A DNA stretch of 32,000 nt from Candidatus Saccharimonadota bacterium. Its GTDB lineage: Archaea > Micrarchaeota > Micrarchaeia > Micrarchaeales > Micrarchaeaceae. Of the stretch, positions 2,901-28,838 are shown one piece after another. The stretch covers positions 570,001 to 602,000 of the forward strand of contig OY970071.1 of the NCBI GenBank assembly GCA_963705375.1. The letters are read 5' to 3'. The position numbers were made by a program, and so were the translations under genes. Position 1 is the first letter of the stretch. Each line of letters starts with the position of its first letter. Under the pieces are notes generated by a model. The model saw only the letters and a list, made by a program, of their open reading frames with translations, was not told the DNA's origin and did not search any database.

Positions 2901-3461
2901 TCATTTGCCGCGTTTTCCGCGGCTTAGTTTGCCAAGAATTGCATCAAGGTCGGAGTGAAGCTGCGAAATCGTGCCGGTGTTTGCCAGATTGTAGTCTGCA
3001 GAGCGTATCACCTGCAGCATTCCAAGGGCCACGTTCCTTCTGTCGCGCCACTCGAACTCTTTGTAGTTGGCAGTCGGTATTCCGCCCTTTCTGTGCATGA
3101 TGCGATCGTATCGCACGCCCTTCGGCACCGAAAGAGTGATCATCGCAACGTTCGGATTGAGCGTGCGTATGTATGACAGTTCTGAGGTGTTGCGAACGCC
3201 TGAAATGACTACATTTCCTTTGGAACGGGCCACGGCTTCCGCAGAAAGCTTCGCGAGGATGTCTCGGCCGAATGCCTTCTTGAGCTTTACAGTGAACTTT
3301 TCCCTGCTGTGGATGTCGACTTGCGTGCCGCATATTTCCATGAGCCTCTTCAGCTCGCCGGAAAGTTCTACAAGGGTGAAGCCTCTGCTTTTCAGCATCT
3401 CCGCTACAGTGGTTTTGCCGCTGCCAGGCATGCCTGTCAGGCAGATTATTATTTTCCTCAT
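2901..3461 (-). CDS. P-loop nucleotide kinase-like protein, UPF0200 / dephospho-CoA-kinase-like family (copy B, tandem paralog)
   Basis: Contains IIICLTGMPGSGKTT, FEWRDRRNVALG and ADYNLANTG, and is collinear with copy A over its full length. The ATG at 3461 gives the same short N-terminus as copy A. The track's TTG start at 3500 would overlap the pilin gene's 3' end. Confidence 0.8.
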   Translation of the reverse strand: MRKIIICLTGMPGSGKTTVAEMLKSRGFTLVELSGELKRLMEICGTQVDIHSREKFTVKLKKAFGRDILAKLSAEAVARSKGNVVISGVRNTSELSYIRTLNPNVAMITLSVPKGVRYDRIMHRKGGIPTANYKEFEWRDRRNVALGMLQVIRSADYNLANTGTISQLHSDLDAILGKLSRGKRGK

Positions 3462-3471
3462 GATATCACAA

Positions 3472-4029
3472 TCAAGCGTACTTTGCTGTGAACGTTGCAA
3501 CCTGCACTATATTATTTTTGCTGTTCGGCAGGCTGGTTATTGTGAAGTTCAACCAGACTGCGCCGTTGAAGGAGTGGCCGGGCGAACTCCTTGCGACGCC
3601 GGAACCGCCGTAGCAGTAGATCTTCAGTATTGTTGTATTGCTGGAGTACAGCAGCACGCCGTTCGCTAGCGCACCGTTTGGATAATATTGCGAAGCTGTG
3701 ATGGCATTGTACCCGACATTTGTGTTGCCGAAAGCGGGCCCCGGCGCATTGCTTGTCGTGTTGGCCTGGCTCGAGCACGCTGCGCCTGTCACATTCATTG
3801 TCGCGCCTGTCGCCTGAGAAAGCACTATGGTAAGCACGCCGCTGTCAGCCTGCATCGATGCGCCAGTGCACGAGAAAGACGGTGCAGCATTACAGTACGA
3901 AGGGGCGAGGAAGTTGTTGAACACGCCGAGCTGCGCCACAGATAGCAGCACTATGGCTATGACGATCAACGCCATACCATAAGAAACCATGAAATCCAGC
4001 GCCGCTTGAGATCTGCGCTGCTTTTCCAC
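3472..4029 (-). CDS. Archaeal type IV pilin-like protein (class III signal peptide)
   Basis: The N-terminus MEKQRRSQAALDFMVSYGMALIVIAIVLLSV has a basic head, a Q-x-[SA]-x-[ED] motif and a roughly 20-aa hydrophobic helix. The mature part is S/T/N/G-rich with paired Cys residues. It is collinear with the first ~165 aa of the 9747..12329 protein. GTG start, 4 nt after the response-regulator stop. Confidence 0.75.
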   Translation of the reverse strand: MEKQRRSQAALDFMVSYGMALIVIAIVLLSVAQLGVFNNFLAPSYCNAAPSFSCTGASMQADSGVLTIVLSQATGATMNVTGAACSSQANTTSNAPGPAFGNTNVGYNAITASQYYPNGALANGVLLYSSNTTILKIYCYGGSGVARSSPGHSFNGAVWLNFTITSLPNSKNNIVQVATFTAKYA

Positions 4030-4033
4030 GTTA

Positions 4034-5230
4034 TCACTGTTGCTGTTCGTCTTCGGAATTTTGCTTGCCCACCTGGAGCTTCACGCCGCTAGAGTCCCTA
4101 GTTATCCGGACATCGAGACGCTCCCCGGCAAACAGCCTGCGCAGTTCGTCGTACGTGTAAGAGCCTATCTCCTTTGAGGGCTTGCTCCTGCTCTTGAGTA
4201 TCTCGTCCCTGCGCTGCTTTATTGCAGATATGCTTGATTCCTCATAAGCCAACGCAAGGCGCGGTATGTCATTGGCGTCGAACATGCCTTCAAGGTCAAG
4301 GTTTATGGCCTTGTAGCCTTCGTCCTGTAGCACGAACGGCATTATCGCGCTGAATTCCCTGCGCAGCTCTTCCATTGCCGCACCGACATCCTCACGCACA
4401 CCGGCCACAACAAAGGCGTCGCTGTTAAGGAACCCGATGAATATGCTCTTTTCCTTTATTATGTCCTGCATCAGCTGCGAGACCAGCCTTATTATGAACA
4501 TTGCGGAAGTGGGGCTTAGCCTTCTGGCATAGTCGTCAAGATGCTCTATGTGGAGCGTGCCCATCGTGTTGTGCGCGCTTGCATTCAACGAGCGCTCGAC
4601 CTCTTCGGATATGCGCGCCTCGGATGGCAGGTCGATCAACGGGTCGAAGCGCTTGCCCTTCTTTTTAAGGAATATAGTCACCAGGCTGCGCAGCTCCTGA
4701 GGATCGAAAGGCTTCTTTATGTAGTAATCCGCACCGTATTTGATGCCCTTGAACCTGTTGCTCGTAGGGTCCATGGCGCTTACAAGTATGACGACAGTCC
4801 TGGCAAGGGCGCTGTTGCTCTTTATCTCCTGACATATCTCGAGACCATCCTTGTTAGGGAGCATCAGATCGAGAACCACCAAGTCAGGCGCGTGCTTCTT
4901 TATCTCGATCATTGCCTCTGCGCCATCATACACCTGCTTTATCGCGAAGTCCTTGCCTATCGATAGGGCCATCAGCTTGTTTATGTTTTTGTCGTCTTCA
5001 ACTATGAGCACGTTTCTCGGAGATTCCTGCTGCAGCATGTAGTACATCATGATGCCTCCAGAGCTGCGTGATGCTATCAGCTTCCTGCTTTCAAGCGTCG
5101 ATAGCGCCTGGGCAAGCTCTTTGGTGTTCATCCCCATATTCTTCAAGGCATCATATAACTCGTCCTGCGAGGCCTGCTGTCTCTCGTTGATTACCGCGAG
5201 AATGCCGCCCAATTCATTCTCATCCTGCAT
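4034..5230 (-). CDS. Response regulator: N-terminal winged-HTH-like domain, REC receiver, C-terminal degenerate GGDEF/palm-like domain
   Basis: The REC signature is complete: VEDD acidic pocket, phospho-acceptor D in DLVVLDLMLP, ILVSA, and K in YIKKPF. The C-terminal part reads FDPLIDLPSEARISEEVERSL...GTLHIEHLDDYARRL...IFIGFLNSDAFVVAGV, which is collinear with the GGDEF consensus DPLTgLpNR...iDiDhFK...RyGGDEFavl but has LNSDAF in place of GGDEF. Confidence 0.85.
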   Translation of the reverse strand: MQDENELGGILAVINERQQASQDELYDALKNMGMNTKELAQALSTLESRKLIASRSSGGIMMYYMLQQESPRNVLIVEDDKNINKLMALSIGKDFAIKQVYDGAEAMIEIKKHAPDLVVLDLMLPNKDGLEICQEIKSNSALARTVVILVSAMDPTSNRFKGIKYGADYYIKKPFDPQELRSLVTIFLKKKGKRFDPLIDLPSEARISEEVERSLNASAHNTMGTLHIEHLDDYARRLSPTSAMFIIRLVSQLMQDIIKEKSIFIGFLNSDAFVVAGVREDVGAAMEELRREFSAIMPFVLQDEGYKAINLDLEGMFDANDIPRLALAYEESSISAIKQRRDEILKSRSKPSKEIGSYTYDELRRLFAGERLDVRITRDSSGVKLQVGKQNSEDEQQQ

Positions 5231-5259
5231 CTGGTCACCGGAAGAATATGAATGAAAAG

Positions 5260-5275
5260 GAATATTATATTATCT
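5260..5275 (-). promoter_or_regulatory. TATA-like box for the response-regulator-led gene string
   Basis: The minus strand reads gataatataatattcc about 38 nt upstream of the ATG at 5230. A GGTGA Shine-Dalgarno motif ends 5 nt before the ATG. Confidence 0.4.
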
Positions 5276-5290: not shown

Positions 5291-5310
5291 ATACATTAAT
5301 CTTAATGTAT
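5291..5310. promoter_or_regulatory. Perfect 9-bp inverted repeat ATACATTAA-TC-TTAATGTAT (candidate operator/UAS, or terminator stem for the GNAT gene)
   Basis: Read directly from the sequence. It lies just upstream of the TATA-like box of the response-regulator gene string and 27 nt downstream of the GNAT stop. Confidence 0.4.
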
Positions 5311-5336: not shown

Positions 5337-5822
5337 CTATATGGGCAGGCGCATCTCATACCATTCAAACCCACCATGTTCTGATTTTGACCGGCCTAGC
5401 AGAACAAAACCATACCTTCGATAATATTCGACCATGTTTTCTTTGCAGATTAGCAGTATGTTCTTCTTTCCAAGTTTTTTTGAGATTTCAACGAATTTGC
5501 CCATCAACAGTGCAGAGATGCCCCTTCCCTGAAATTCTGGAAGAACTGCCAAGGAGAATATGACAATGTTCTTACCGGACGGGACGTGACCGATCATGTC
5601 TTTGAATCTTTCGTCGGCTATGTCTTCCTTGTCTGTCGAGGCACTGTTTATTATGCCCACAATCTGGATGCCGATTTCTGCAACAAGAAAGCCCTGAGGG
5701 AACGTTTCGATTCTCTTTTTTATTCGTTCCTTTATGGCACCTTCCGAAGTGTAACAATTAGATTCTATGTTAAAGCAACGATCTAGATCAGCGGGCATTA
5801 CCTGCCGGATTATTATTTTCAA
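5337..5822 (-). CDS. GNAT family N-acetyltransferase
   Basis: Acetyl-CoA binding motif LAVLPEFQGRGISALLM, followed by YYRRYGF. The start is ambiguous: TTG 5822 gives MKIIIRQV..., and GTG 5864 and ATG 5798 are also possible. Confidence 0.85.
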   Translation of the reverse strand: MKIIIRQVMPADLDRCFNIESNCYTSEGAIKERIKKRIETFPQGFLVAEIGIQIVGIINSASTDKEDIADERFKDMIGHVPSGKNIVIFSLAVLPEFQGRGISALLMGKFVEISKKLGKKNILLICKENMVEYYRRYGFVLLGRSKSEHGGFEWYEMRLPI

Positions 5823-5905
5823 GGGTATTCCCTTTTGGCGCTTGTAGAATAAGGATGAAAGCACTTATTAAAAAGCTTATTGACAATACAATACAGGTTG
5901 TGTTG

Positions 5906-6934
5906 ATGTTTCGCCAAAATAATTCAAACATGAAGGCACTGCAGGTCCCAGTTGCGAAAATCGCAATAGGGGGTATCGTCATTGTAGTTGCCGCACTTTC
6001 GTATATGATGCTCAACGGAAGCAGCATAAACACAATAAATTCTGCAACCACGCTCAGCATCACAAAGTCTGCAAGCGCATTCAGAATGGGCGATTACACA
6101 TACGGGATAGCGCTTGCTAAGGCAGTTCCGAGCAGCAACGTGGCATACATATATCTCAACAGGCTTCCGGCGTTCATGAACCCGCTGCTCAACGTGACAG
6201 TTTACACAGGGCAAGGAACAAGGATCAATGCAGGCACATCTTTTGCCAACATAGAGCTCCAGGCAGCATCTGTGGGCAGCAACTCTGTGGCACTTACAAT
6301 AACTCCGATAAGCACAAACCTGCAGATAGCGCCAGACAGCGCATACATCTCGACCGTGCGCACATCCTTGCAGAGCTTGCAGCAGAACGGCACAGCAAGC
6401 GGTTCGCCGACATCCAATACGGCTAACACTGCGGCCAACGCCATAACCACAACGTCTGTCCTGAGCACATCCACTACGACAGTGACAGCAGGCAACGTAA
6501 CCAGGTCAGAGATAATGGCAGCACTGCAGAAGAGCATATATTACCCATTGATGGTCAACTACAGCAGCATTTACGCGAACACTCTAGGCTGCACGCCGGT
6601 AATGTACAATGCGACATACACCATGATAAAGGGCAGCGCCCCTGCGGGATTCAACACATTCCAGAACGTCAGCCAGTACGTGCCGTATTCGCTGTACAGC
6701 AACATAACTAGCAACGGCGCTGGCGTATATTCTGTGATTTATCGCACCAGAACGATAAGCACGCAATACAACAATTCTGCCGCACTGACAATAAGGATAA
6801 ATGCAAGCGCAGGGATCATCGTAGGTAGCGGCGTGTTCAGTGGCGTGTTCATGGGCCTGAACCATACACAAGTGAGCAACGGATACACGAGCATAGCGGG
6901 CATAAAGAGCGCGTGCGCGGCCTACATGAGCTGA
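5906..6934 (+). CDS. Membrane-anchored or secreted S/T-rich protein, unknown family
   Basis: N-terminal hydrophobic anchor VAKIAIGGIVIVVAALSYMML, a central S/T/N-rich linker (SGSPTSNTANTAANAITTTSVLSTSTTTVT) and many N-x-S/T sequons. Alternative starts at 5855 and 5930. Confidence 0.65.
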   Translation: MFRQNNSNMKALQVPVAKIAIGGIVIVVAALSYMMLNGSSINTINSATTLSITKSASAFRMGDYTYGIALAKAVPSSNVAYIYLNRLPAFMNPLLNVTVYTGQGTRINAGTSFANIELQAASVGSNSVALTITPISTNLQIAPDSAYISTVRTSLQSLQQNGTASGSPTSNTANTAANAITTTSVLSTSTTTVTAGNVTRSEIMAALQKSIYYPLMVNYSSIYANTLGCTPVMYNATYTMIKGSAPAGFNTFQNVSQYVPYSLYSNITSNGAGVYSVIYRTRTISTQYNNSAALTIRINASAGIIVGSGVFSGVFMGLNHTQVSNGYTSIAGIKSACAAYMS

Positions 6935-9138
6935 TCCGCACTTCTTTTCTTCGACTTCGGCTTGATGGGCAGGCTGAACCAGAATGTGCTGCCCCTTCCT
7001 TGTTGCGAGGTGAAGCCTATTCTGCCTCCGTGCAGCTTGATGATCTCTTTTGTTATGGACAAGCCAAGACCTGTGCCCGCACCGACCTGCGTCACCAAGT
7101 CTTTCTTGGGCGCCTCGTAGAATTTCTTGAATATCTTGTGCTTGTCCTCGTCGCTTATGCCTATACCGGTATCGATCACGTCGACCTCAACCGTCCTTTT
7201 GCTCTTCTTGAAAACTTTCACCGTTATGCTACCGCGCTCTGTGAACTTCACAGAGTTGCCTATGAGGTTCACGAGCACCTGAATCAGCCTGTTCGGGTCA
7301 GCAGTGATCTTCGGCACATCGAAGCTGGTGTTCCATGAGAACTCGAGATGCTTATTTGTCGCTGCGTCGCGCAGAGCGGTTATGCTGTGGCTGTTCGCAA
7401 GCTCGTTCAGATCGACTTCTTTCAGCTCAAGCTTGACCTTGTTCGCTTCCAGCTTCGCAGCGTCGAGCACCTGCTGTATGATCAGCATCAGCCTGTCGGC
7501 CTCTTGTGTTATTGTAGAAACGTAGTTGCGTTGCTCTTCGTTGAGGGGGCCGAACTCACCACCGTATAGAAGAGAGGAGAAGCCCTTTATGTTCGTCAGC
7601 GGCGTCTTGAGCTCGTGGGATATGTTGTATATGAACTGGGACTTCAGGAAGTTGTTTGCCCTTAGCTTGTTGGCTTCGTTCGCAAGTTCCTTTATCTTGC
7701 CCCCCTGATCCTGAAGGAGCCTCTTGGTCTCAAGCTCTTTCGCGAAGATGACATAGCTTGCGTCCCCGTTCACATCCTTCACGAGCCGCATCGAGCATGA
7801 TGTCGAAATGCGGCTGCTGTTCTTGGCTATGAAATCGACATATGAGTTGTCCACTTTTGTGCCGTTTATAACGTACTTCACGTCGCGCTCGAATATTGTT
7901 GGTTCGGCATATATGCTCTTCACGTCCCTTCCTATCAGCTCGTTCCTGGAATACTGGAGCATCGCTTCGACAGGCATGTTGCACTCCTTTATGTAACCAA
8001 GAGTATCCATGACGATCACGAGCTCAGAGGTGTTGCTGATGAAATCCTCGAGGGCGGCATTCACTGCAGAGATGTAGCTCTCTGCCTGTGCGTTAGTGAA
8101 AATGAGCACATAGCCCAGAGAATAGTTTGCAAGGGCGTACCGCAGCTTGGTCGACGCAGTCTTGATTCCATTGACATCGAATGTCCCGTGAAGGGGCTTG
8201 CCGTTGCTCATCGCAACGTCACGTTTGAACGCATCGCGCTCGTTCTCTTGCAGCATGCTGACGAAGCTCTTGCCCTGGAGCATGTCGCCGTTATAGCCCG
8301 TTATGCTCGAGAATGCGTTTGTCGAAGTTACGATGCCAAGATCGCGGTCTAGGACAAGGACGCCTATCTGCCCGCTGCCCTGCATCGCAGACGCCGCTGC
8401 ACTCAGCGTTTCAAGATCGGTGATGTCCTGCATTGAGATGTGAAGCAGCTTGTCGCTTATCTTGCTCGTGCTTATGTTGTAGACGCGCTCTTTGCGCTGA
8501 ACCTTCATGCCCTTGCCTGTCAGTGATGCCAGCTGACCGAAGTCCAAGCCTATCTCACGTACAGTGGCATGCGCAGGCAAATCCAGCATCCGTATGGCCG
8601 CACTGTTAGACTTCACCACAGAACCGTCGGTAGAAACGATCATTTGCGGCAGGATAGAGTTGAATGCACCGTTGAAATAGTTCGCGATGCTGAGATTCCT
8701 GCTGTTCTCTCGCTTGTACATCAGGGCAAAACCGACAAGATACGCACCGAAAGATATGCTACCTGTGACCTCTTCCGTGAATTTGTTTTCAGACGTTGAA
8801 AGAAGCCTGAGCACCGCTATGAGTCTACCGTTAACTATGACCGGCACGATAGCGCAGCTCTTGTAGCCTTTGCTGCGGTAGTTGATCAACTCTGGGAATG
8901 ACGAGAACTCGCTCAATTGGTTGTCTATGTAGGGCTTGCGCGTGTTGAAAAGATAGCCTTCAAGCGTGCTGGACGGCACCCTTTCATCAGACATGCTATC
9001 CATGCTGACCTGTTCGATTCCGAACGTGTTCGCTATAACACTCGAGAAATGTTTTGAGAGCTCTTCATCATTGGTGGCGCTGCTAAGTACAGGAATCAAT
9101 TCGTTAAGAAGTTTTTTTACAGAGGCATCGTCCGCCAT
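6922..9138 (-). CDS. Soluble sensor histidine kinase (GAF-like N-terminus, about three PAS-like modules, HisKA, HATPase_c)
   Basis: H-box FIYNISHELKTPLTNIKGF, N-box LIQVLVNLIGNSVKFT, G1 DTGIGI and G2 GTGLGLSITKEIIKLHGG. There is no TM segment. Confidence 0.9.
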   Translation of the reverse strand: MADDASVKKLLNELIPVLSSATNDEELSKHFSSVIANTFGIEQVSMDSMSDERVPSSTLEGYLFNTRKPYIDNQLSEFSSFPELINYRSKGYKSCAIVPVIVNGRLIAVLRLLSTSENKFTEEVTGSISFGAYLVGFALMYKRENSRNLSIANYFNGAFNSILPQMIVSTDGSVVKSNSAAIRMLDLPAHATVREIGLDFGQLASLTGKGMKVQRKERVYNISTSKISDKLLHISMQDITDLETLSAAASAMQGSGQIGVLVLDRDLGIVTSTNAFSSITGYNGDMLQGKSFVSMLQENERDAFKRDVAMSNGKPLHGTFDVNGIKTASTKLRYALANYSLGYVLIFTNAQAESYISAVNAALEDFISNTSELVIVMDTLGYIKECNMPVEAMLQYSRNELIGRDVKSIYAEPTIFERDVKYVINGTKVDNSYVDFIAKNSSRISTSCSMRLVKDVNGDASYVIFAKELETKRLLQDQGGKIKELANEANKLRANNFLKSQFIYNISHELKTPLTNIKGFSSLLYGGEFGPLNEEQRNYVSTITQEADRLMLIIQQVLDAAKLEANKVKLELKEVDLNELANSHSITALRDAATNKHLEFSWNTSFDVPKITADPNRLIQVLVNLIGNSVKFTERGSITVKVFKKSKRTVEVDVIDTGIGISDEDKHKIFKKFYEAPKKDLVTQVGAGTGLGLSITKEIIKLHGGRIGFTSQQGRGSTFWFSLPIKPKSKKRSADQLM

Positions 9139-9746: not shown

Positions 9747-12329
9747 TCACGTAGGGAAATATTCCATCACTGTGTTGGAAGGACCGCAATTGACCCAGTA
9801 GACGTTGCCGCCGCTGACCACTATGCCAGAAGGGTTGTACTGACCTGCGGCAAGTGGAATGATTGTGCCTCCAGAGTATTCCATAATAGAACCACCGACG
9901 GGGGCAGTCCAGTAGACGTTGCCGCCACTTACGGCTATTCCCTCAGGAGAGAGTTGATTTGAAGCAAGAACGATAGGTGTGCCGCCGGAATACTCCATTA
10001 CATTCCCAGTATAACCAGAACCACGAGAGTTTGCCCAGTATACATTACCGCCGGTGTCGACAGCAATATCTATAGGACTTGCCTGCCCAGTAGCTATCGG
10101 CGCAACAGTGACGCCGTCGTACTTCATGATGTTGCCGCTCCAGGCATCTGCCCAATAGACGTTGCTGCCGCTGGCCATTATCCCATATGGGCCACTCTGG
10201 TCAAAGGCGATGGTGTTGGTTGTGACGCCGTTGTACTCCATAACACTGTTGCTGCCGAACAAGTTAGTCCAGTAGACGTTGCCTCCGCCGTCTACTGTCA
10301 CAAATTGAGGGAAGTTCTGACCTGTGGCGATGGTGTTGGTTGTTACGCCGTTGTACTCCACGATATTGCCAGGAGATATAGAAACATATGCATTGGCCCA
10401 GTAGACGTGGCCGTTGCTGTCGACAAATATGCCCTGTGGATCACCTTGCCCAGTAGCTATCGGCGCAACAGTGACGCCGTCGTACTTCATGACATTGCCA
10501 TTTGGGTAAGCGCTATCGGTCCAGTAGAGGTTACCGCTGGAGTCGGCAGCTATGAAGCAAGGATAGTTCTGATCTGATGCTATAGGACGTTTGAAGTGGG
10601 CCGTTTCGCTCACCGCACTCGAAGGCATAGTAAACAACCAGGGATCAGAGGTGCTTGGGTTAGAGGTGAATGAAGATGTGCCAACCCACGCAGAGAAGGT
10701 ATATCCTGAACTTGTATCTGCAGTAGCCGTAAGAATGATATCATTTCCAGAGACATAGTTTCCATCAGAGCAACCACCAGAATGGGTTGGAGAGGCATAG
10801 ACAGAAGTGCCTCCTATACTGTATGAGAGCGTGAGAGGATAGCAAGTTTGAGATCCGCCACCGCCGCCACCTCCGCCCCCGCCGCTGCCACCGGATCCTG
10901 TGCAAGTATAACCTGCCTGGCACTCCACCACAGCGCCAGAACCGCTGTCTGCCCAATAGACGTTGCCGCTGCTGTCGACGGCTATGCCCGCAGGCGCGCT
11001 CTGCCCAGTGGCTATCGAATTAACTGTGCCTCCAGAATATTTCATCACGTCGCCGGAGCCCATGTCAGTCCAGTAGACGTTGCCCCTGTTGTCCACAGCT
11101 ATGCCGAGAGCGCCAGTCTGTCCGGTCGCGAGGGGCCTTACTGTATTCGAGCTCGCAACATATTCCATCACGTCAGCAGATGAGCTTCCAACGTTATCTA
11201 AGCTGCTCAGGTGAGTGTTTATCCAATAGACGTTGCCGCTGCTGTCGACCGCAATCAAAAGCGGGCCATCCGCTGTCGCTATTGTTCGATCAGAGCTGCC
11301 AGAATGCTCCCGGATTTCACTTGAACCAAAGTCAGTCCAGTAGACGTTGCCGTTGCGTGCAGCTATGCCGAGAGGCTCGCCCGCTCCATGCACAAGAACA
11401 CTGGCCACACTACCAGGGTACACCATCACGTTGCCGTCTCCAGCGACAGTCCAGTAGACGTTGCCGTTGCCGAAAGTTATTCCAATAGGCGATGATAGTC
11501 CAGAAGCGATATTAGTCGTCCCACCAGAAGAATGCTTCGACACGTTACCAGAGTTCATATCGGTCCAGTAGACGTTGCCGCTGCCATCTACGGCTATAAA
11601 GGCCGGATTGTCACCATTGAGATCGGTAGCAAGCGGCGTCACAGTATTCGTGCTTTTGACATACTTCATAACATTAGCATTGTCTTGCGTGGACTCTGTC
11701 CAGTAGACGTTTTCACTGCTGTCGACGGCTACTCCGAATGCGCTGTTCTGCCCTGAAGCCAATATTATCAAATTTTCGGATTGAGAGCCGCCACCACCGC
11801 CTCCGATTGTTGTGGTGCCGCCACCGCCTCCGCCACTTCCAGAACCAAAGGCAGCGACCCTGGCATTCACCGACCCAATTTGCACCACAAGGCCTGTTTG
11901 ACCGTTCTGCGCGTACTTCATCCAAAGCGTTCCGGCAAAAGGAGTGCCAAGTGCGTTAGATGATAAAGGGCATGGGAAGTCGACAGTCTGCTGCGAGCCC
12001 GCACCTAGCGCAATCCCGTTTGCTATAGTAGTATAACTTGAACTTGGAGGGGCAGCAGAGCCGCTTGAACATGCGACACCGACAACATTTATTGGCTGTG
12101 AAGAGCCTATCGTTGTGGACAAAATACCGTTGGAAAGCAGGACAGGGTTTGTGCACAGGTAGCCGACCTGTGTTACACAAGAGGTGCTTGAGGCCGCGCC
12201 AGTGCGAAAGACGCCCAAGCTGAACAGTGCGGCAAGCACGACAGCAATGATGAGAATCGCCCAGCCGTACGTCATCAAGTATTCCATAGCGGACTGAACT
12301 CTTAGTTTACGCTTGGGAGCGTTAGACAT
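9747..12329 (-). CDS. Giant pilin-like adhesin: class III signal peptide plus pilin domain, poly-Gly linker, 7-blade YWTD/NHL-type beta-propeller, poly-Gly linker, InlB-B-repeat-like domain, second 7-blade propeller
   Basis: The N-terminus reads KRKLRVQSAMEYLMTYGWAILIIAVVLAALFSL. Fourteen repeats have the pattern P.GIAVDssGNVYWtD...g.vmkY.g. The linkers are GSGSGGGGGGTTTIGGGGGGS and GSGGSGGGGGGGGGGS. The middle segment is YPLTLSYSIGGTSVYASP...GNDIILTATADTSSGYTFSAWVG. The ATG at 12329 follows AGGGTGA; a GTG at 12335 is also possible. Confidence 0.85.
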   Translation of the reverse strand: MSNAPKRKLRVQSAMEYLMTYGWAILIIAVVLAALFSLGVFRTGAASSTSCVTQVGYLCTNPVLLSNGILSTTIGSSQPINVVGVACSSGSAAPPSSSYTTIANGIALGAGSQQTVDFPCPLSSNALGTPFAGTLWMKYAQNGQTGLVVQIGSVNARVAAFGSGSGGGGGGTTTIGGGGGGSQSENLIILASGQNSAFGVAVDSSENVYWTESTQDNANVMKYVKSTNTVTPLATDLNGDNPAFIAVDGSGNVYWTDMNSGNVSKHSSGGTTNIASGLSSPIGITFGNGNVYWTVAGDGNVMVYPGSVASVLVHGAGEPLGIAARNGNVYWTDFGSSEIREHSGSSDRTIATADGPLLIAVDSSGNVYWINTHLSSLDNVGSSSADVMEYVASSNTVRPLATGQTGALGIAVDNRGNVYWTDMGSGDVMKYSGGTVNSIATGQSAPAGIAVDSSGNVYWADSGSGAVVECQAGYTCTGSGGSGGGGGGGGGGSQTCYPLTLSYSIGGTSVYASPTHSGGCSDGNYVSGNDIILTATADTSSGYTFSAWVGTSSFTSNPSTSDPWLFTMPSSAVSETAHFKRPIASDQNYPCFIAADSSGNLYWTDSAYPNGNVMKYDGVTVAPIATGQGDPQGIFVDSNGHVYWANAYVSISPGNIVEYNGVTTNTIATGQNFPQFVTVDGGGNVYWTNLFGSNSVMEYNGVTTNTIAFDQSGPYGIMASGSNVYWADAWSGNIMKYDGVTVAPIATGQASPIDIAVDTGGNVYWANSRGSGYTGNVMEYSGGTPIVLASNQLSPEGIAVSGGNVYWTAPVGGSIMEYSGGTIIPLAAGQYNPSGIVVSGGNVYWVNCGPSNTVMEYFPT
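10084..10492. repeat. Intragenic near-identical DNA repeats within the second propeller
   Basis: An exact 46-mer, tgcccagtagctatcggcgcaacagtgacgccgtcgtacttcatga, occurs at 10084-10129 and 10447-10492, a 363-nt in-frame offset. A 35-mer with one mismatch occurs at 10206-10240 and 10326-10360, a 120-nt offset. Confidence 0.9.
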
Positions 12330-12418
12330 TTTCACACCCTTGATTTTAATAGTAAAGAATCAGCCTACTTAACCTTTTCCTCTGTGTTTTTATACAGTGA
12401 GCGCACAATTAATGTGAA

Positions 12419-23691: not shown

Positions 23692-24705
23692 TCACATGCT
23701 TTCTATGCCTTTGATGAAGCTTGCGTCCATCGATCCCGAGCTCGCTATGTGCTTCGTGTTGAATTTCGGGGTGACGCCTGTGATCACAGACATGACGTTT
23801 ATCTGGTCTCCGAGCTCCGGCATCAGCCTTGCACCGAAGATCACGTTTGCCCTTGGGTCAAGACCCTCTGTAACACCAGCACCGACTCTTGTAGCGTCCT
23901 CTATTGTCAGCGATTCGCTGCCCGAAACGTGCACGAGCGCGCTCTTTGCACCTTCCCTGTCAACTTCCAGCAACGGGTGGGCAAGAGTGGACTTTATCGC
24001 TTTGTCGACCTTGTCCTGACCTGAACCATGCCCGAGGCTTATCGTTGCAGTACCGGCATCGCGCAGAACAGCGCGCACATCCGCGAAGTCCAGATTTATC
24101 AGGCTTGGGATCGTTATCGTGTCTGCAATTCCCTTAACTGCGTTTGCCGCAACGTTGTCAACGAGCTCGAACGCCTTCTCGACCTGCAGGTTTGGCGCAT
24201 AGCTGAGCAGCTTGTCGTTCTCTATCACGATTGTCGTGTCCGCATTCTTGCACAGTTGCTCAAGGCTCCAGTCTGCCTTTGCTTTCCTGCTGCGCTCCAA
24301 CGAGAAAGGATATGTAACGAACGCAACTACCAGAGAGCCCTGTTCCCTTGCAAGCCTGGCCACTATCGGTGCAGAGCCACCTCCGGTTCCACCTCCAAGA
24401 CCAGCAGCTAGGAATATCATATCATAGCCCTCTATCAGGCTCATTATCTCCCTGCTGCTTGCCTCTGCGGCCTTTGCTCCAAGCTCAGGATAGCCGCCGA
24501 CACCAAGACCCTGCGTCAGCTCCTTGCCTATGAGTATGCGTTTGTGAGCACGTATCATGTTAAGGTGGTTCGCGTCGGTATTCATTGCGATCGTTGTGGC
24601 GCTCTTTATTCCGCGAGTGTAGAGCCGGTTCACAAGATTGCTACCCATACCTCCGAGGCCCACGACAGCGAGCTTTGCGATAAACTCATTTTCTTCCATG
24701 TTCAT
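23692..24705 (-). CDS. ftsZ: Cell division GTPase FtsZ, downstream paralog
   Basis: VVGLGGMGSN, NTDANHL, GLGVGGYPELG, the tubulin signature GLGGGTGGGSAP, and the T7 loop NLDFADV. The ATG at 24705 is preceded by AGGTGGA (24711-24717). The track's upstream extension to 24864 overlaps the other ftsZ gene. Confidence 0.9.
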   Translation of the reverse strand: MNMEENEFIAKLAVVGLGGMGSNLVNRLYTRGIKSATTIAMNTDANHLNMIRAHKRILIGKELTQGLGVGGYPELGAKAAEASSREIMSLIEGYDMIFLAAGLGGGTGGGSAPIVARLAREQGSLVVAFVTYPFSLERSRKAKADWSLEQLCKNADTTIVIENDKLLSYAPNLQVEKAFELVDNVAANAVKGIADTITIPSLINLDFADVRAVLRDAGTATISLGHGSGQDKVDKAIKSTLAHPLLEVDREGAKSALVHVSGSESLTIEDATRVGAGVTEGLDPRANVIFGARLMPELGDQINVMSVITGVTPKFNTKHIASSGSMDASFIKGIESM

Positions 24706-24719
24706 AGATATCCACCTAT

Positions 24720-25805
24720 TTAACCAACAAGCTCCAGATCGGAGTAAGGCTGCTTGCGCGCCTTCTCTTCCAACCTTCCAGTCAGGCTTGAGCCCTTTGC
24801 GCCAGCGACGATGGCCACTATCTCTATCTGGTCGTCGTAGCCCGGTATGAGCCTTGCGCCCCACTTGATGTTGGCCTTCGGATCCATGCGCTCAGATATT
24901 ATTTCCCCGGCCTTTATCGCGTCTCCTATAGTCATGGAAGCGCCGCCTGATATGTGTATCAGTGCACCTGAGGCACCCTCAAAGTCGACATCAAGCAGCC
25001 TGTTCTTCAGGACAGAGTCGGATGCACTGTTAACTTTGTCAGTGCCACGTCCGCTGCCTACTGCTATGAAACCAACGTCGCCATGTCCCAGTATGCTCCT
25101 GACATCAGCAAAGTCTATGTTGATAAGGCTCGGCTGTGTTATCGTCCATACAAGTCCGCCTATCGCCTTTGAAACTACATCGTCAGCGAGTGCGAACGCT
25201 TCGTTCATGGGCAAGTTCGGAACAAGCTTGACCAGCCTGTTGTTGTCCAGTATGACCACGGTGTCGCAGAACTTCCTAAGTGCCTGTATGCCCTCTTCCG
25301 CCTTGACCTTCCTTACGCGCTCAAGGTCGAACGGGTATGTGACCATGGATATGACTATTGCGCCCTGCTCCTTGGCAATTTGGGCAGCAACCGGCATTGC
25401 GCCGCCTCCTGTTCCGCCACCCATACCTGCGCAAAGGAATACCAACTGTGCGCCGTTGAATGCCTGCTCAAGCAAAGGCCTGTCGACTTCGGCAGCTTTT
25501 GCACCTATCATCGGGTCGCCGCCTGCGCCAAGCCCTTTTGTCAGGCTCTTTCCGATTAGTATTTTCTTGATTCTCTCGTCGATTATCTTGAAGTGCTGTG
25601 CATCCGTGTTAACGGCCACGAATTCAGTGCCCTTCACACCGACCTTTATCAGCCGGTTGACGATGTTGCAGCCCGCGCCTCCCATGCCGACCGTAACAAT
25701 CTTTATCTGTGTAGAACCGAACGCCTGCTCGGTCTCCTTTGACTGGTCCAGAACATCGCTCACGAAGTCTCCCATCTGATCGCCTGTGCCGTATTCGTCT
25801 GACAA
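24720..25805 (-). CDS. ftsZ: Cell division GTPase FtsZ, upstream paralog
   Basis: VGMGGAGCN, NTDAQH, GLGAGGDPMIG, GMGGGTGGGAMP, and the T7 loop NIDFADV. The 25805 start is a TTG and the first ATG is at 25775. A TATA-like tattataaaaatt (minus strand) lies at about 25824-25836. Confidence 0.9.
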   Translation of the reverse strand: MSDEYGTGDQMGDFVSDVLDQSKETEQAFGSTQIKIVTVGMGGAGCNIVNRLIKVGVKGTEFVAVNTDAQHFKIIDERIKKILIGKSLTKGLGAGGDPMIGAKAAEVDRPLLEQAFNGAQLVFLCAGMGGGTGGGAMPVAAQIAKEQGAIVISMVTYPFDLERVRKVKAEEGIQALRKFCDTVVILDNNRLVKLVPNLPMNEAFALADDVVSKAIGGLVWTITQPSLINIDFADVRSILGHGDVGFIAVGSGRGTDKVNSASDSVLKNRLLDVDFEGASGALIHISGGASMTIGDAIKAGEIISERMDPKANIKWGARLIPGYDDQIEIVAIVAGAKGSSLTGRLEEKARKQPYSDLELVG

Positions 25806-25990: not shown

Positions 25991-26635
25991 TCATTTTGGC
26001 GAAGGGCTCGCAAGCGTGTAGTTTGCGAGCATGCTGCCCGAAGAGCCCATGACGACATACTCAGAATAGTTCGCATCATTGGCGGTGTAGTTGATCAGCC
26101 AGACGCTGGTGAAGTTTTTGCCTGTCGGAGTTGCACCACTGCCAAGTGCAGAGAAGAACTTTGCCGCGACGCGCGTGTTATTGTAACCGAAGGCGTCAAC
26201 GTAAGACCTCACCCGCACTGGCGACTGGTTGTAGCTCATCGCGATTGCTATGTAAGGAGAGCTTATCACGTACGAAGGAGCTGTTGAAACGCCATATATC
26301 ACACAATGCGATGTGTAAAGGTTGTCTACGCTAGGAACAAGATTTGTGGCCGGATAATCAAAGGCTTCTATAAAAAGTGTTGGGCAGGGCCTGCTTGCAT
26401 TGTACACGACGCTCAGAACGATATCCCAGCTTCCGGACTTCAGTGTTGAAGATGAAACGTTGATGACCGTTATGTTTGCGCTTGGGTTGTTATCCCGCAT
26501 GTCGCGAAGCACATATTGCACGGCCTGCTGCGAAGTCAATGGGCCGGACATCACATGTTTGGAAAGGAGGAACACAGCAGCTGCCAGCACTATGACGATG
26601 CCCGCCACTATCGCCACCCTTCCGAGAAGTTCCAT
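25991..26635 (-). CDS. N-terminally anchored, sequon-rich extracellular hypothetical protein
   Basis: TM anchor RVAIVAGIVIVLAAAVFLL followed by an extracytoplasmic body with several N-x-S/T sequons (NIT, NVS, NAS, NQS, NNT, NFT, NYT...). Confidence 0.6.
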   Translation of the reverse strand: MELLGRVAIVAGIVIVLAAAVFLLSKHVMSGPLTSQQAVQYVLRDMRDNNPSANITVINVSSSTLKSGSWDIVLSVVYNASRPCPTLFIEAFDYPATNLVPSVDNLYTSHCVIYGVSTAPSYVISSPYIAIAMSYNQSPVRVRSYVDAFGYNNTRVAAKFFSALGSGATPTGKNFTSVWLINYTANDANYSEYVVMGSSGSMLANYTLASPSPK

Positions 26636-26726
26636 GTTGCCCTTTTCACTGGAAAATTATAATAATGGATACTTTCAGGCGTCCTGCACACTATAAATAG
26701 GTTTGCGCACAATTAGATGGGAGCAC

Positions 26727-27140
26727 ATGGCAGATGATGAATACTACGCATTGCTGGACAGGGCTCTATCTAAGCTTCCGGGCCTTACCAAGGAGCACTC
26801 GGATTTCGTAATTCCCAAGGCGGACCTGTTGGTGCAGGGCGCCAAGACCATGATCAGGAACCTTTCGGGCATAGCAGACATTGCCAGGAGAAAGCCCGAA
26901 GACATTTCGCGCTACATGAGCAAAGAGTTTTCAGTGCCTGTTAGCATCGAGGAGCAGAGGTTGATAATGAGCAGTAAGTTCTCCGGAGATGACGTCGACA
27001 AGCGCATCAAGAAGTACTTCGAGGTGTATGTCATATGCAAGGAGTGCCACAAGCCAGACACGCACCTTGAAGCTGCAGAGCGCGGAATGTATCTTGTGTG
27101 CGACGCATGCGGAGCAAGATATTGGGTCAAGAACTATTAA
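26727..27140 (+). CDS. eif2b: Translation initiation factor 2 subunit beta (aIF-2beta)
   Basis: YYALLDRALSKLP, TMIRNLSGIADIARRKPEDISRYMSKEF and the C-terminal zinc ribbon CKECHKPDT...CDACGA. The ATG at 26727 lies downstream of a ctataaatag box. Confidence 0.9.
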   Translation: MADDEYYALLDRALSKLPGLTKEHSDFVIPKADLLVQGAKTMIRNLSGIADIARRKPEDISRYMSKEFSVPVSIEEQRLIMSSKFSGDDVDKRIKKYFEVYVICKECHKPDTHLEAAERGMYLVCDACGARYWVKNY

Positions 27141-27172
27141 CTATTAAAAACAAAAACGCTAGAAGTGTTAAA

Positions 27173-27526
27173 ATGGCAGGATTTGGAAGAAGAAGTTTCA
27201 GAGGCGGAGCGCACAAGAACAGGAGGGGAAGAGCACGTGGAGAGGAGGTGGTCCAGGCACTCAAGATGCCTGCACAGGATGAGCGCATAGGCAAGGTTGT
27301 GAAAGTTGCAGGAACCACAAAGTTCCTTGTAAGGTGCAACGATGACAAGGAGAGGTTATGCACGATACCTGGAAGGCTCAGAAGACACTTCTGGATTAAG
27401 GAGAATGACATTGTTATAGTCAAGCCGTGGATAGTGCAGAGCGACGTGCGCGGCGACATAGTGTGGAGGTACAGTGTGCTCGACATGAACAGGCTGAAGG
27501 ATAGCGGCGCGCTGCAGAACCTATGA
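27173..27526 (+). CDS. eif1a: Translation initiation factor 1A (aIF-1A)
   Basis: The OB-fold core RIGKVVKVAGTTKFLVRCNDDKERLCTIPGRLRRHFWIKENDIVIVKPW..QSDVRGDIVWRY. Confidence 0.9.
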   Translation: MAGFGRRSFRGGAHKNRRGRARGEEVVQALKMPAQDERIGKVVKVAGTTKFLVRCNDDKERLCTIPGRLRRHFWIKENDIVIVKPWIVQSDVRGDIVWRYSVLDMNRLKDSGALQNL

Positions 27527-27623
27527 CTATGACAGCAAGAAGCCAAGTAGCATGATGTGGGGACAGCAATATTAAATAAAAGAAAAAGCACAGTAACATA
27601 CATAGCAACAGCCAGGGGGTAAG

Positions 27624-28838
27624 ATGCCACTTAACGAGTTTCTCATCGAGTCAAAGGTATTCGCAGACAGAGCCGTGCTCTCGATGCACTACATCCCGAA
27701 GAAGTTGGTTTTCAGGGAAAAGGAGATCAGCAACATAGAGAAGGCGCTCGCACCCGCTCTAAAGGGGGAGCGCGGCAGGAACCTTTTCATATACGGCAGG
27801 ACCGGCACAGGCAAGACATCCTGCACGCACTACGTCATAGACGAAGTGAAGAATCTCCCGAACACCAAGACCAAGATATCTTATGCTAACTGCAGGATAT
27901 ACAACTCAAGGTACAGAGTCTTGAACAAGATCGTCAGCGATCATCTTCCGACATACGCCAAGCGCGGCTACAGTGCTGTCGACCTGTATGAGAAGATAAC
28001 AAGCTGGATCGAAGAAGATAGCAAGACGCTCGTTGCCGTGCTGGACGAGATAGACATGGTAAGAGACCTGGACGACCTCGTGTACACGCTTACAAGGATA
28101 AACGCGGACATAAAGGCAGGAGGCGTCACGATAGTAGGCATATCAAACAAAGTCTCGTTCAAGGACGAACTGGATCCGAGGAGCCTGTCGACTTTGTACG
28201 AAACGGAGCTCGTCTTCCCATCATACTACGCGACAGAGCTTTATGCGATACTCAAGGAGAGGGTGGCCCAGGCGTTCAAGGATGGCGCAGTGAGCGATGA
28301 TGTTCTCCACTATATAGCATCAATGGCCTACAAGGAAGGCGGCGATGCGAGGCTGTCGTTGAAGATCCTCTCGGAGGCAGGAGAGCTTGCTGACGAGCAT
28401 GGAGCAGAGCATGTCACGATGAAAGAAGCGGAAGAAGCCGCAAAAGTTGCAGAAAGGGAGGTGGTCTACGACCTCATAGTCACTCTGCCTGAACACTACA
28501 AGCTTGTGCTGTACGCACTAACCAAACTCACGCTTAGCGGCGGATCCTACAAGAAGCTCACGGACGGCACAGACACGTACCTCTTTAGCGGGGAAGTGTA
28601 CAACAGGTACAGGAGCATAGCCGAAAGCCTGCACAAAGAGCCGAAGAGCGAGCGCTGGTACAGGAAATACCTGTCTGAGCTCAGCATGCAGGGACTCATA
28701 CTCTCGTTCGAGTCAGGAAAGGGCATACGCGGCCACACGAAGCTCATAAAGCTAGTGTCCCCTGTGCAGAAAACGCAGGAGGTTCTTGAGAAGGACCTTT
28801 TCGGCGCAGAGCAGAAAGCTCAGGAGAAGCAAAGCTAG
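27624..28838 (+). CDS. cdc6: Orc1/Cdc6 replication initiator
   Basis: YIPKKLVFREKEI, Walker A NLFIYGRTGTGKTS, Walker B LVAVLDEID and sensor TIVGISN, plus a C-terminal winged helix (GKGIRGHTKLIKL). Confidence 0.92.
   Translation: MPLNEFLIESKVFADRAVLSMHYIPKKLVFREKEISNIEKALAPALKGERGRNLFIYGRTGTGKTSCTHYVIDEVKNLPNTKTKISYANCRIYNSRYRVLNKIVSDHLPTYAKRGYSAVDLYEKITSWIEEDSKTLVAVLDEIDMVRDLDDLVYTLTRINADIKAGGVTIVGISNKVSFKDELDPRSLSTLYETELVFPSYYATELYAILKERVAQAFKDGAVSDDVLHYIASMAYKEGGDARLSLKILSEAGELADEHGAEHVTMKEAEEAAKVAEREVVYDLIVTLPEHYKLVLYALTKLTLSGGSYKKLTDGTDTYLFSGEVYNRYRSIAESLHKEPKSERWYRKYLSELSMQGLILSFESGKGIRGHTKLIKLVSPVQKTQEVLEKDLFGAEQKAQEKQS

Follow-up and report, generated by a model that had tools for sequence, protein, structure and literature searches.

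A receiver-linked, degenerate GGDEF domain conserved in a response regulator of Candidatus Micrarchaeota

Introduction

What is a diguanylate cyclase domain doing in an archaeon, when the residues that would make it a cyclase are gone? The question is raised by a gene for a response regulator in a 32,000-nucleotide stretch of DNA from a micrarchaeal genome (positions 570,001 to 602,000 of contig OY970071.1, assembly GCA_963705375.1), which we call here the window. Micrarchaeota belong to the DPANN archaea, have genomes of ~1 Mb and spend their life attached to their hosts, which are Thermoplasmatales. The predicted regulator consists of a probable N-terminal winged helix-turn-helix (wHTH) domain, a receiver (REC) domain and a C-terminal domain that is almost certainly homologous to the GGDEF diguanylate cyclase domain. 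This last domain is degenerate in its active site and, at the same time, strongly conserved across the family. The reading that we favour, with a probability of roughly 0.6, is a composite one, in which the protein would be a transcription factor controlled by phosphorylation, and its pseudo-cyclase domain would serve as a dimerisation or interaction module.

Regulators of this kind have been noted before. Galperin et al. (2018; PMC5847659) recorded a 'WspR-like (REC with inactivated GGDEF)' regulator in Candidatus Micrarchaeum acidiphilum, in one sentence and a table row, and their supplementary listing gives BK997_02000 and UNLARM2_0239 as REC-GGDEF proteins. In their census, four of the six Micrarchaeota genomes have one histidine kinase and one response regulator, ARMAN-2 has two histidine kinases, and AZ1 has none; besides the REC-GGDEF regulators, just one other archaeal GGDEF domain is named, in Methanocella arvoryzae. 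The same study left contamination open for bacterial-type regulators in unfinished archaeal genomes. Our literature searches on GGDEF domains or response regulators of Micrarchaeota or Micrarchaeum returned this paper alone, and a wider one, for archaeal regulators with a degenerate GGDEF domain, led to bacterial work only. Some of the orthologs have, in addition, received automatic names, such as 'GGDEF domain-containing protein' (JGI) or 'PleD family two-component system response regulator' (NCBI). A preliminary description of the window, made from its sequence alone, had presented the REC-GGDEF architecture as unusual for an archaeon; the architecture itself is borne out, whereas its novelty is not, as it was already catalogued in 2018 and is partly annotated by automatic means.

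Homology of the C-terminal domain to GGDEF

Relatives of the regulator were sought in one genome per GTDB species, where 132 stretches encode one, and the best 80 of these 132 were examined. The 80 orthologs taken from these related genomic loci, aligned with the window protein, make up the 81 sequences behind the residue frequencies given below, and counts of neighbouring genes are likewise out of the 80 loci.

Taken by itself, the window protein says little about the nature of its C-terminal part. Pfam finds in it the receiver domain only, and the NCBIfam matches all fall on the receiver as well, with OmpR/PhoB-type receivers as the best ones. There is no match to the GGDEF model PF00990 even at E <= 1, with either the full-length protein or its C-terminal part, so that the gathering score of 23.8 bits is not reached, and single-sequence searches with the C-terminal 209 amino acids (aa) returned nothing in Pfam and no PDB sequence match. 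The same 209 aa found just 8 relatives in an index of 5.8 billion proteins. The missing Pfam match is explained by the divergence of this particular sequence, and homology is not thereby absent: when orthologs are scanned singly, 25 of 39 do match PF00990, with a best E value of 3e-7.

Profiles make the relationship much clearer. A profile built from seven C-termini, used in an exhaustive search of 1.84 billion representative proteins, returned 141 proteins at E <= 0.001, headed by ~22 family members; beyond the family, the matches start at E 7e-12 and extend over profile positions ~8-120, and among 40 of the weaker matches that were sampled, 37 carry a Pfam GGDEF domain and 20 a receiver domain. 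The comparison by hhalign of 39 ortholog C-termini with 40 GGDEF-bearing proteins gave a probability of 99.3% (E 4e-20, 119 columns) and paired DPLIDLP with NPLTxLPGN (cf. DPLTGLPNR), k-i-x-n-L-g-x-Y-a with D-l-D-n-F-K-a-y-N, and FvGFLns~~F with FvGHIGGDDF. HMMER, in turn, aligned the family with the active GGEEF cyclase 6eib_A of the PDB, placing 'FvGflnsdEFvi' over 'FCGRVGGEEFII' and 'tlkienl..ya.rfg' over 'SIDIDNFKLINDQFG', the profile matches to PDB entries being marginal (E 0.02). The preliminary description had drawn three motif correspondences, for the DPLT start, the metal site and the GGDEF signature, and all three fall in the same register in the HMMER and hhalign alignments.

Structure prediction leads to the same family. 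The full-length AlphaFold model has a pLDDT of 65.7, and its best structural matches are WspR, DgcR and PleD, while a model of the C-terminal part only, which rests on 19 sequences, has a pLDDT of 75.8 and a pTM of 0.74. In the latter, the elements follow the order a0-b1-a1-a2-b2-b3-a3-(loop)-b4-a4, succeeded by a helix and a beta-hairpin, which is the order of the GGDEF palm. When this model was compared by Foldseek with the PDB, the top 17 matches were all GGDEF domains (including DgcB, DosC, SadC, 6eib, SiaD and WspR), with E values from 1.6e-4 and target TM scores of 0.50-0.58 for stand-alone GGDEF-domain entries; the next ranks are taken by class III adenylyl cyclases and Cas10 palms. Profiles, AlphaFold and Foldseek therefore agree on the GGDEF/palm-like fold that had been proposed for this domain, and none of them yielded the contrary outcome of no palm fold.

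Loss of the active site

Canonical positions were mapped onto the family through the hhalign and HMMER/6eib alignments, and are given here in the numbering of PleD (D327, K332, N335 and D344). The first metal-binding Asp (D327) is H227 in the window protein and a basic residue in most of the family (K 46, R 23, H 3 of 81). The Lys that contacts the triphosphate (K332) is D232 in the window protein and G, A or S in most orthologs. Both guanine contacts are replaced, N335 by A235 (A in 64/81) and D344 by M244, a position held by M, I or V in the family. The GG[DE]EF hairpin is absent, with NSDAF in its place in the window protein and N-S-[DE]-x-F across the 81 sequences, where N is found in 62, S in 57, D in 43 and E in 23 of them, the fourth position is variable and F is present in 81/81. 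The RxxD I-site, expected five residues upstream of the signature, was not found in the 81 sequences; the corresponding positions read K-x-x-V and are variable, with K at the R position in 39/81 and a hydrophobic residue at the D position.

As the metal, guanine, phosphate, signature and I-site residues are all lost, cyclase activity and canonical binding of GTP or cyclic di-GMP (c-di-GMP) are very unlikely. Judged from these alignments, the catalytic machinery is gone in all 81 sequences, and we hold the catalytic inactivity of the family to be highly probable. Cyclase activity had been called doubtful on the strength of LNSDAF and the replaced metal-site Asp in a single protein, and that doubt now extends to a site that is degenerate in all 81 sequences.

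Could the domain still be an active nucleotidyl cyclase with a non-canonical site, working through [DE]271 and other acidic residues? The palm fold is kept, and an acidic residue is found at position 271 in 66/81 sequences and at position 229 in 50/81. Furthermore, in the divergent members P0012, P0015, P0017, P0168 and P0176 the signature reads G-Y-[IL]-G-[EDN]-G-E-F and so is nearer to GGDEF than the NS[DE]xF of the main family; this G-[EDN]-G-E-F suggests an intermediate state in a stepwise decay. These remnants have to be set against the replacement of the first metal-binding Asp by a basic residue in 72/81 sequences, the variability of the second acidic position of the signature, the substitution of the glycines of the hairpin turn, now N and S, and the loss of every base and phosphate contact to the substrate. 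Going by PleD and WspR, we know of no active GGDEF enzyme that does without all those residues, and an active cyclase seems to us highly improbable.

Conservation of the pseudo-cyclase domain

Pairwise identity across the 79 full-length orthologs averages 46% in the N-terminal domain, 75% in the receiver and 56% in the GGDEF-like domain, and from residue 190 on, linker included, 34 positions are at least 95% conserved. By this measure, the GGDEF-like domain is under strong purifying selection and not decaying. Part of what is conserved is specific to the family, namely the near-invariant linker KKGKRFDPLIDLP and a polar stripe on helix alpha2, formed by R248/S251/Q252/Q255/D256, which is invariant in 81/81 sequences and is not conserved in the bacterial GGDEF relatives aligned by hhalign. 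The i, i+3/4, i+7/8 spacing of the stripe residues suggests that they share one helical face. The family represents a clean example of a cyclase domain kept through tens of percent of divergence after total loss of its catalytic residues.

Conservation without catalysis is also what would be expected of a receptor, and degenerate GGDEF domains often take on this role, as in the I-site binders PopA and PelD or in the GTP-sensing PdeA of Caulobacter. Under this explanation, GTP, c-di-GMP or another nucleotide, possibly derived from the host, would gate the regulator allosterically through the pseudo-cyclase domain, and the invariant R248/S251/Q252/Q255/D256 stripe, together with the basic KKGKR segment, could make the ligand site. 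However, the guanine contacts have become A and M/I, the triphosphate Lys is mostly G, A or S, and there is no RxxD I-site, for which reason a reading of the domain as an I-site or GTP sensor was set aside. In addition, no EAL, HD-GYP or PilZ domain is found among the scanned large open reading frames (ORFs) of the window, and as the 2018 census (PMC5847659) has one regulator per Micrarchaeota genome and, besides the REC-GGDEF regulators, the archaeal GGDEF domain of Methanocella arvoryzae only, these archaea have no known cyclase of their own. A receptor for a nucleotide or a second messenger is, on balance, unlikely. The preliminary description had allowed for either a nucleotide-binding module or a purely regulatory pseudo-cyclase, and of the two it is the regulatory one that we favour.

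The receiver and the N-terminal domain

The regulator gene starts with the ATG at 5230-5228 and stops with the TGA at 4034-4036, and full-length orthologs of 395-409 aa are found in 78/80 loci. The segment 4196-4648 of the window corresponds to residues 195-345 of the protein, and the codons at 4412-4429 to L268-N-S-D-A-F273. The coordinates of the domains, motifs and conserved neighbours are collected in Table 1.

Table 1. Regulator gene, its domains and motifs, and the conserved elements around it (window coordinates; neighbour counts out of 80 related loci)
Feature	Coordinates	Strand	Basis and remarks
Response regulator gene, wHTH (probable) + REC + degenerate GGDEF	4034..5230	-	ORF listing, 398 aa
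Probable N-terminal winged helix-turn-helix domain, residues 1-70	5021..5230	-	Predicted topology and weak profile matches
Receiver (REC) domain, residues 74-184	4679..5011	-	Pfam Response_reg, E 7.3e-24
Predicted phospho-acceptor D121 of the REC domain	4868-4870	-	
Linker and domain-start motif K190-K-G-K-R-F-D-P-L-I-D-L-P202, near-invariant	4625..4663	-	At least 95% conserved, 79 orthologs
Degenerate GGDEF (palm) domain, residues 195-~350, with C-terminal helix/beta-hairpin to ~390	4061..4648	-	Profiles, hhalign, AF2, Foldseek
Beta1, former metal-/guanine-binding segment T225-R237 (TLHIEHLDDYARR)	4520..4558	-	Ortholog residue frequencies and hhalign
Signature N269-S-D-A-F273 replacing G-G-[DE]-E-F	4412..4426	-	Aligned to GGEEF of 6eib and GGDDF of the bacterial clade
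Polar stripe on helix alpha2: R248, S251, Q252, Q255, D256	4463..4489	-	Invariant 81/81
Pilin-like gene, 185 aa	3472..4029	-	Directly downstream in 76/80, same strand 73
Conserved gene, N-terminal signal and C-terminal hydrophobic segment	1450..2283	-	Downstream, 63/80, same strand 59; no Pfam match
Conserved gene, 229 aa	743..1432	-	Downstream, 52/80, same strand 48; no Pfam match
Membrane-anchored protein, N-terminal hydrophobic segment	5930..6934	+	Divergent; 57/80, opposite strand 55; median 285 nt from regulator start
Histidine kinase GAF-PAS-PAS-HisKA-HATPase_c, cognate candidate	6922..9138	-	Upstream in 58/80, same strand 53
TATA-like box TAATATT of the regulator promoter	5261..5267	-	31-37 nt upstream of the ATG
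Shine-Dalgarno-type GGTGAC	5234-5239	-	Upstream of the regulator ATG

Contrary to the C-terminal domain, the receiver needs no special effort to be recognised. E78, D79, D80, D121, S151, Y170 and K173 are found in every ortholog that covers these positions, which, with the Pfam match, confirms a receiver domain that is intact and predicted to be competent for phosphorylation. The residue count behind the earlier description of a fully phosphorylatable REC domain with D121, S151 and K173 was right.

The N-terminal domain is more elusive. In the full-length AF2 model, its elements are H4-17, E19-21, H22-32, H36-48, E52-57 and E60-65, that is, a1-b1-a2-a3-b2-b3. Compared with Pfam, 12 of 33 ortholog N-termini match Penicillinase_R (best E 4e-7) and others match MCM4_WHD, CodY, MarR, HTH_20 or Arg_repressor, the matches of the window protein itself to wHTH models being all below the curated thresholds (Arg_repressor, E 0.00075-0.03). 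A profile of the N-terminus, searched against the PDB, finds MecI, BlaI, SmtB and CodY at E 0.04-0.07. These profile matches are weak, yet all of them go in one direction, and the N-terminal ~70 aa probably form a wHTH, so that the extra N-terminal wHTH suggested in the first place finds consistent support in profiles and predicted topology.

Archaeal origin and distribution

Whether a GGDEF-type regulator in an archaeal assembly is archaeal at all is the doubt that the 2018 census had left. Nearly all of the best 80 relatives come from Candidatus Micrarchaeota, the closest of them being 88% identical, and they include one on the closed chromosome of Candidatus Micrarchaeum sp. A_DKE, a complete genome in which the gene block around the regulator is present too. 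The window itself holds archaeal genes for fibrillarin, a class I glutamyl-tRNA synthetase (GluRS), Rpo7, Orc1/Cdc6 and two FtsZ proteins, and the regulator lies in a block with the fibrillarin and GluRS genes within ~6 kb. The archaeal origin that the preliminary description had assumed is thereby supported, with fibrillarin, Rpo7, Orc1/Cdc6 and FtsZ in the window and orthologs of the regulator in genomes of Candidatus Micrarchaeota.

A handful of loci are labelled otherwise. L010, L014, L023, L030, L051 and L057 come from bins named Marsarchaeota, Acidoferrum, Methanothrix and Acidiferrales, yet they encode a regulator of the Micrarchaeota type. On the Methanothrix and Marsarchaeota contigs that were checked, the gene block is identical, starting with GluRS and fibrillarin and continuing over the kinase and the regulator as far as the pilin-side genes, which makes it probable that these contigs are mis-binned.

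The alternative is a gene of bacterial origin that reached archaeal contigs by mis-assembly or mis-binning. This explanation could appeal to the bacterial REC-GGDEF proteins, such as one from Chloroflexota, that are the closest active relatives of the family, and to the few carrier contigs with the labels Acidoferrum, Acidiferrales or Methanothrix. Nevertheless, the gene is present in at least 132 species genomes, of which the 80 examined are nearly all from Micrarchaeota and one is a closed chromosome, and it stands in synteny with archaeal fibrillarin and GluRS, in a block that the checked Methanothrix and Marsarchaeota contigs share. The archaeal-type TATA box of the regulator, and the Rpo7, Orc1/Cdc6 and two FtsZ genes of the window, speak against it as well. 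Contamination was rejected, being effectively refuted by a conserved synteny with archaeal genes that spans the phylum; the regulator is truly archaeal and phylum-wide, and the doubt of 2018 is settled.

Gene neighbourhood and promoter

The pilin-like gene begins 4 nt past the regulator stop in the window, and its start lies between -29 and +23 nt from that stop in nearly all printed loci. As the two genes overlap or are separated by such a short gap, they are very probably co-transcribed in most loci. The pilin-like protein has a conserved N-terminus, [KR][SA]Q[AS]A[LI]D[FL]xx[SA]YG with a hydrophobic helix after it (73 sequences extracted, 40 printed), which resembles an archaeal class III signal peptide. 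The gene finds no match among the Pfam and NCBIfam models, DUF7287 being reached at E 0.49. The pilin gene noted earlier directly downstream of the regulator is the adjacent gene in 76/80 loci and has a signal-peptide-like N-terminus of the class III kind, without a match to a curated family. NCBIfam has no family either for the divergent membrane protein, the two conserved downstream genes or the N-terminus of the 862-aa adhesin-like protein described below.

Upstream of the regulator, the 73 non-redundant regions that were compared have TAATAT or ATAATA concentrated at -40 to -31 and GGTGA at ~-10. K-mer enrichment upstream of these 73 orthologs recovered only the TATA box, an A-rich stretch resembling a B recognition element (BRE) and the Shine-Dalgarno sequence.

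In the window, the regulator and the divergent membrane-protein gene are separated by a gene for a GNAT acetyltransferase (5337-5864, minus strand). None of the 80 loci has a counterpart of this gene, so that it looks like a lineage-specific insertion. The ORF of the divergent membrane protein, as listed from 5855, runs into the start of the GNAT gene; translation more probably begins at a second in-frame Met, at 5930 (MKALQVPVAKIAIGG...), which immediately precedes the hydrophobic segment. A perfect 9-bp inverted repeat, ATACATTAA-GA-TTAATGTAT (5291-5310, minus strand), is placed 27 nt past the GNAT stop and 24 nt upstream of the TATA-like box. It may be what is left of a terminator that belonged to the insertion, or else a local operator, and it was not accepted as an operator of the family, being unique to this genome and just after the inserted gene.

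Proposed mechanism

The favoured reading, that of a transcription factor with a non-enzymatic pseudo-cyclase, can be put as a sequence of steps. The cytoplasmic GAF-PAS-PAS kinase, encoded two genes upstream, would phosphorylate D121, and the phosphorylated receiver would dimerise. The pseudo-cyclase would act here as a dimerisation or partner-binding module without enzymatic function, inherited from REC-GGDEF cyclases, which pair their GGDEF domains on activation. The paired N-terminal wHTH domains would then bind DNA and control the regulator's own operon, which would run into the pilin-like gene and two more, one of them with a signal peptide and a C-terminal anchor, and the other cytoplasmic-looking. 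The parts of this proposal differ in strength: for the role as a transcription factor, the scales are evenly balanced, whereas any part that the pseudo-GGDEF domain may have in dimerisation or partner binding is purely inferred.

Several observations weigh against this reading. The C-terminal half of the domain (residues ~310-398) has no sequence-level alignment to GGDEF by hhalign, and the loop of residues 306-320 is of low confidence in the AlphaFold model. The wHTH call consists of sub-threshold profile matches and a medium-confidence model (pLDDT 66-81 for residues 1-50), and upstream of the gene there is no conserved operator or palindrome, the best inverted repeats being close to those of shuffled sequence. 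The divergent archaeal member P0030 keeps the adjacent kinase and has a proteasome beta subunit downstream instead of the pilin, and the link to the pilin is therefore not universal. Finally, a site for a small molecule would explain the invariant polar stripe just as well.

This last point can be carried further. The pseudo-GGDEF domain might have evolved a new site for a ligand or a partner, made of the R248/S251/Q252/Q255/D256 face and the KKGKR linker, and the sole two-component system of these episymbionts, with their reduced genomes, might sense a nucleotide or a host cue and switch on pilus or surface genes for attachment to the host. We regard this as a long shot; if true, it would give archaea their first functional signalling module based on GGDEF.

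As for what the transcription-factor reading would mean, the 2018 census, with one histidine kinase and one response regulator in most Micrarchaeota, makes this regulator probably the sole phosphorelay output of most of them. Given its phylum-wide conservation and probable co-transcription with pilin-like and surface-type genes, it is a concrete candidate for a switch of cell-surface structures and host contact. What the finding does not do is bring c-di-GMP signalling into archaea.

Other observations in the window

Two tandem paralogous genes of the AAA_18/nucleotide-kinase-like type (2308-2904 and 2901-3500, both on the minus strand; 198 and 199 aa) stand between the pilin-like gene and the conserved downstream gene, a position at which homologs are found in just 19/80 loci. 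Beyond the kinase, a protein of 862 aa (9747-12335, minus strand) combines an N-terminus resembling a class III signal peptide (QSAMEYLMTYGWAILII) with Gly-rich linkers and numerous NHL/beta-propeller 'GNVYWT' repeats, and its Pfam matches are Vgb_lyase, NHL and SBBP. The protein has the appearance of an adhesin of the pilus tip or the cell surface, and a relative is found in just 5/80 loci.

Farther away, two tandem FtsZ/tubulin paralogs (23692-24864 and 24720-25805, both on the minus strand) overlap by ~145 nt as listed. The GC skew changes from -0.13 (24-26 kb) to +0.11 (26-28 kb), with the cumulative minimum at ~26 kb, and the Orc1/Cdc6 gene (27624-28838, plus strand) is next to this minimum; the region ~26000-28838 is a possible replication origin.

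Comparison with known systems

The closest known proteins are the regulators of ARMAN-1 (BK997_02000 / OJI07771) and ARMAN-2 (UNLARM2_0239), which belong to the same lineage and have the same combination of a REC domain and an inactivated GGDEF domain. In ARMAN-1, the numbering BK997_01990/BK997_02000 fits the same layout, with one gene between the kinase and the regulator. By every sign, that is, by lineage, architecture and gene numbering, they appear to be members of the same orthologous family. The account of 2018 (PMC5847659) does not go into which residues of the active site are lost, how far the family is conserved across the phylum or how it is joined to a pilin-like gene in a conserved operon, and what is new here is the audit of the active site residue by residue, the proof that the family is archaeal and phylum-wide, the probable N-terminal wHTH and the conserved kinase-regulator-pilin block.

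PleD from Caulobacter, WspR from Pseudomonas and DgcR from Leptospira likewise have a receiver followed by a domain of the GGDEF fold, with the DxLTxLP start motif and the beta2-beta3 hairpin in the same register as in the window protein. Unlike the window family, these proteins are active, and they have the GG[DE]EF signature, the metal Asp, the N/D guanine contacts and the RxxD I-site, all of which are missing here. They are also without an N-terminal wHTH, which the window family probably has. WspR and DgcR contain, moreover, a long helical stalk, whereas the window protein has a short linker.

Outside the family, the nearest proteins belong to a bacterial REC-GGDEF clade with the pattern NPLTxLPGN...DLDNFKxYND...GHIGGDDF (Chloroflexota P0029 / NOZ06155.1), found at E 7e-12 to 1e-3. 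This clade and the window family have in common the LP..I..EIE helix alpha0, the FxG..(5)F hairpin and the EF..v.P segment after alpha3. The bacterial proteins keep all catalytic residues and are without a wHTH.

In terms of what has become of the domain, there is a parallel in PopA from Caulobacter and in other regulators whose degenerate GGDEF domains serve as c-di-GMP receptors: in PopA a receiver is joined to a catalytically dead GGDEF domain repurposed for regulation, and the window family is one more case of a response regulator with a degenerate GGDEF domain. PopA, however, binds c-di-GMP via a conserved RxxD I-site and has no DNA-binding domain, whereas the window family is without that I-site.

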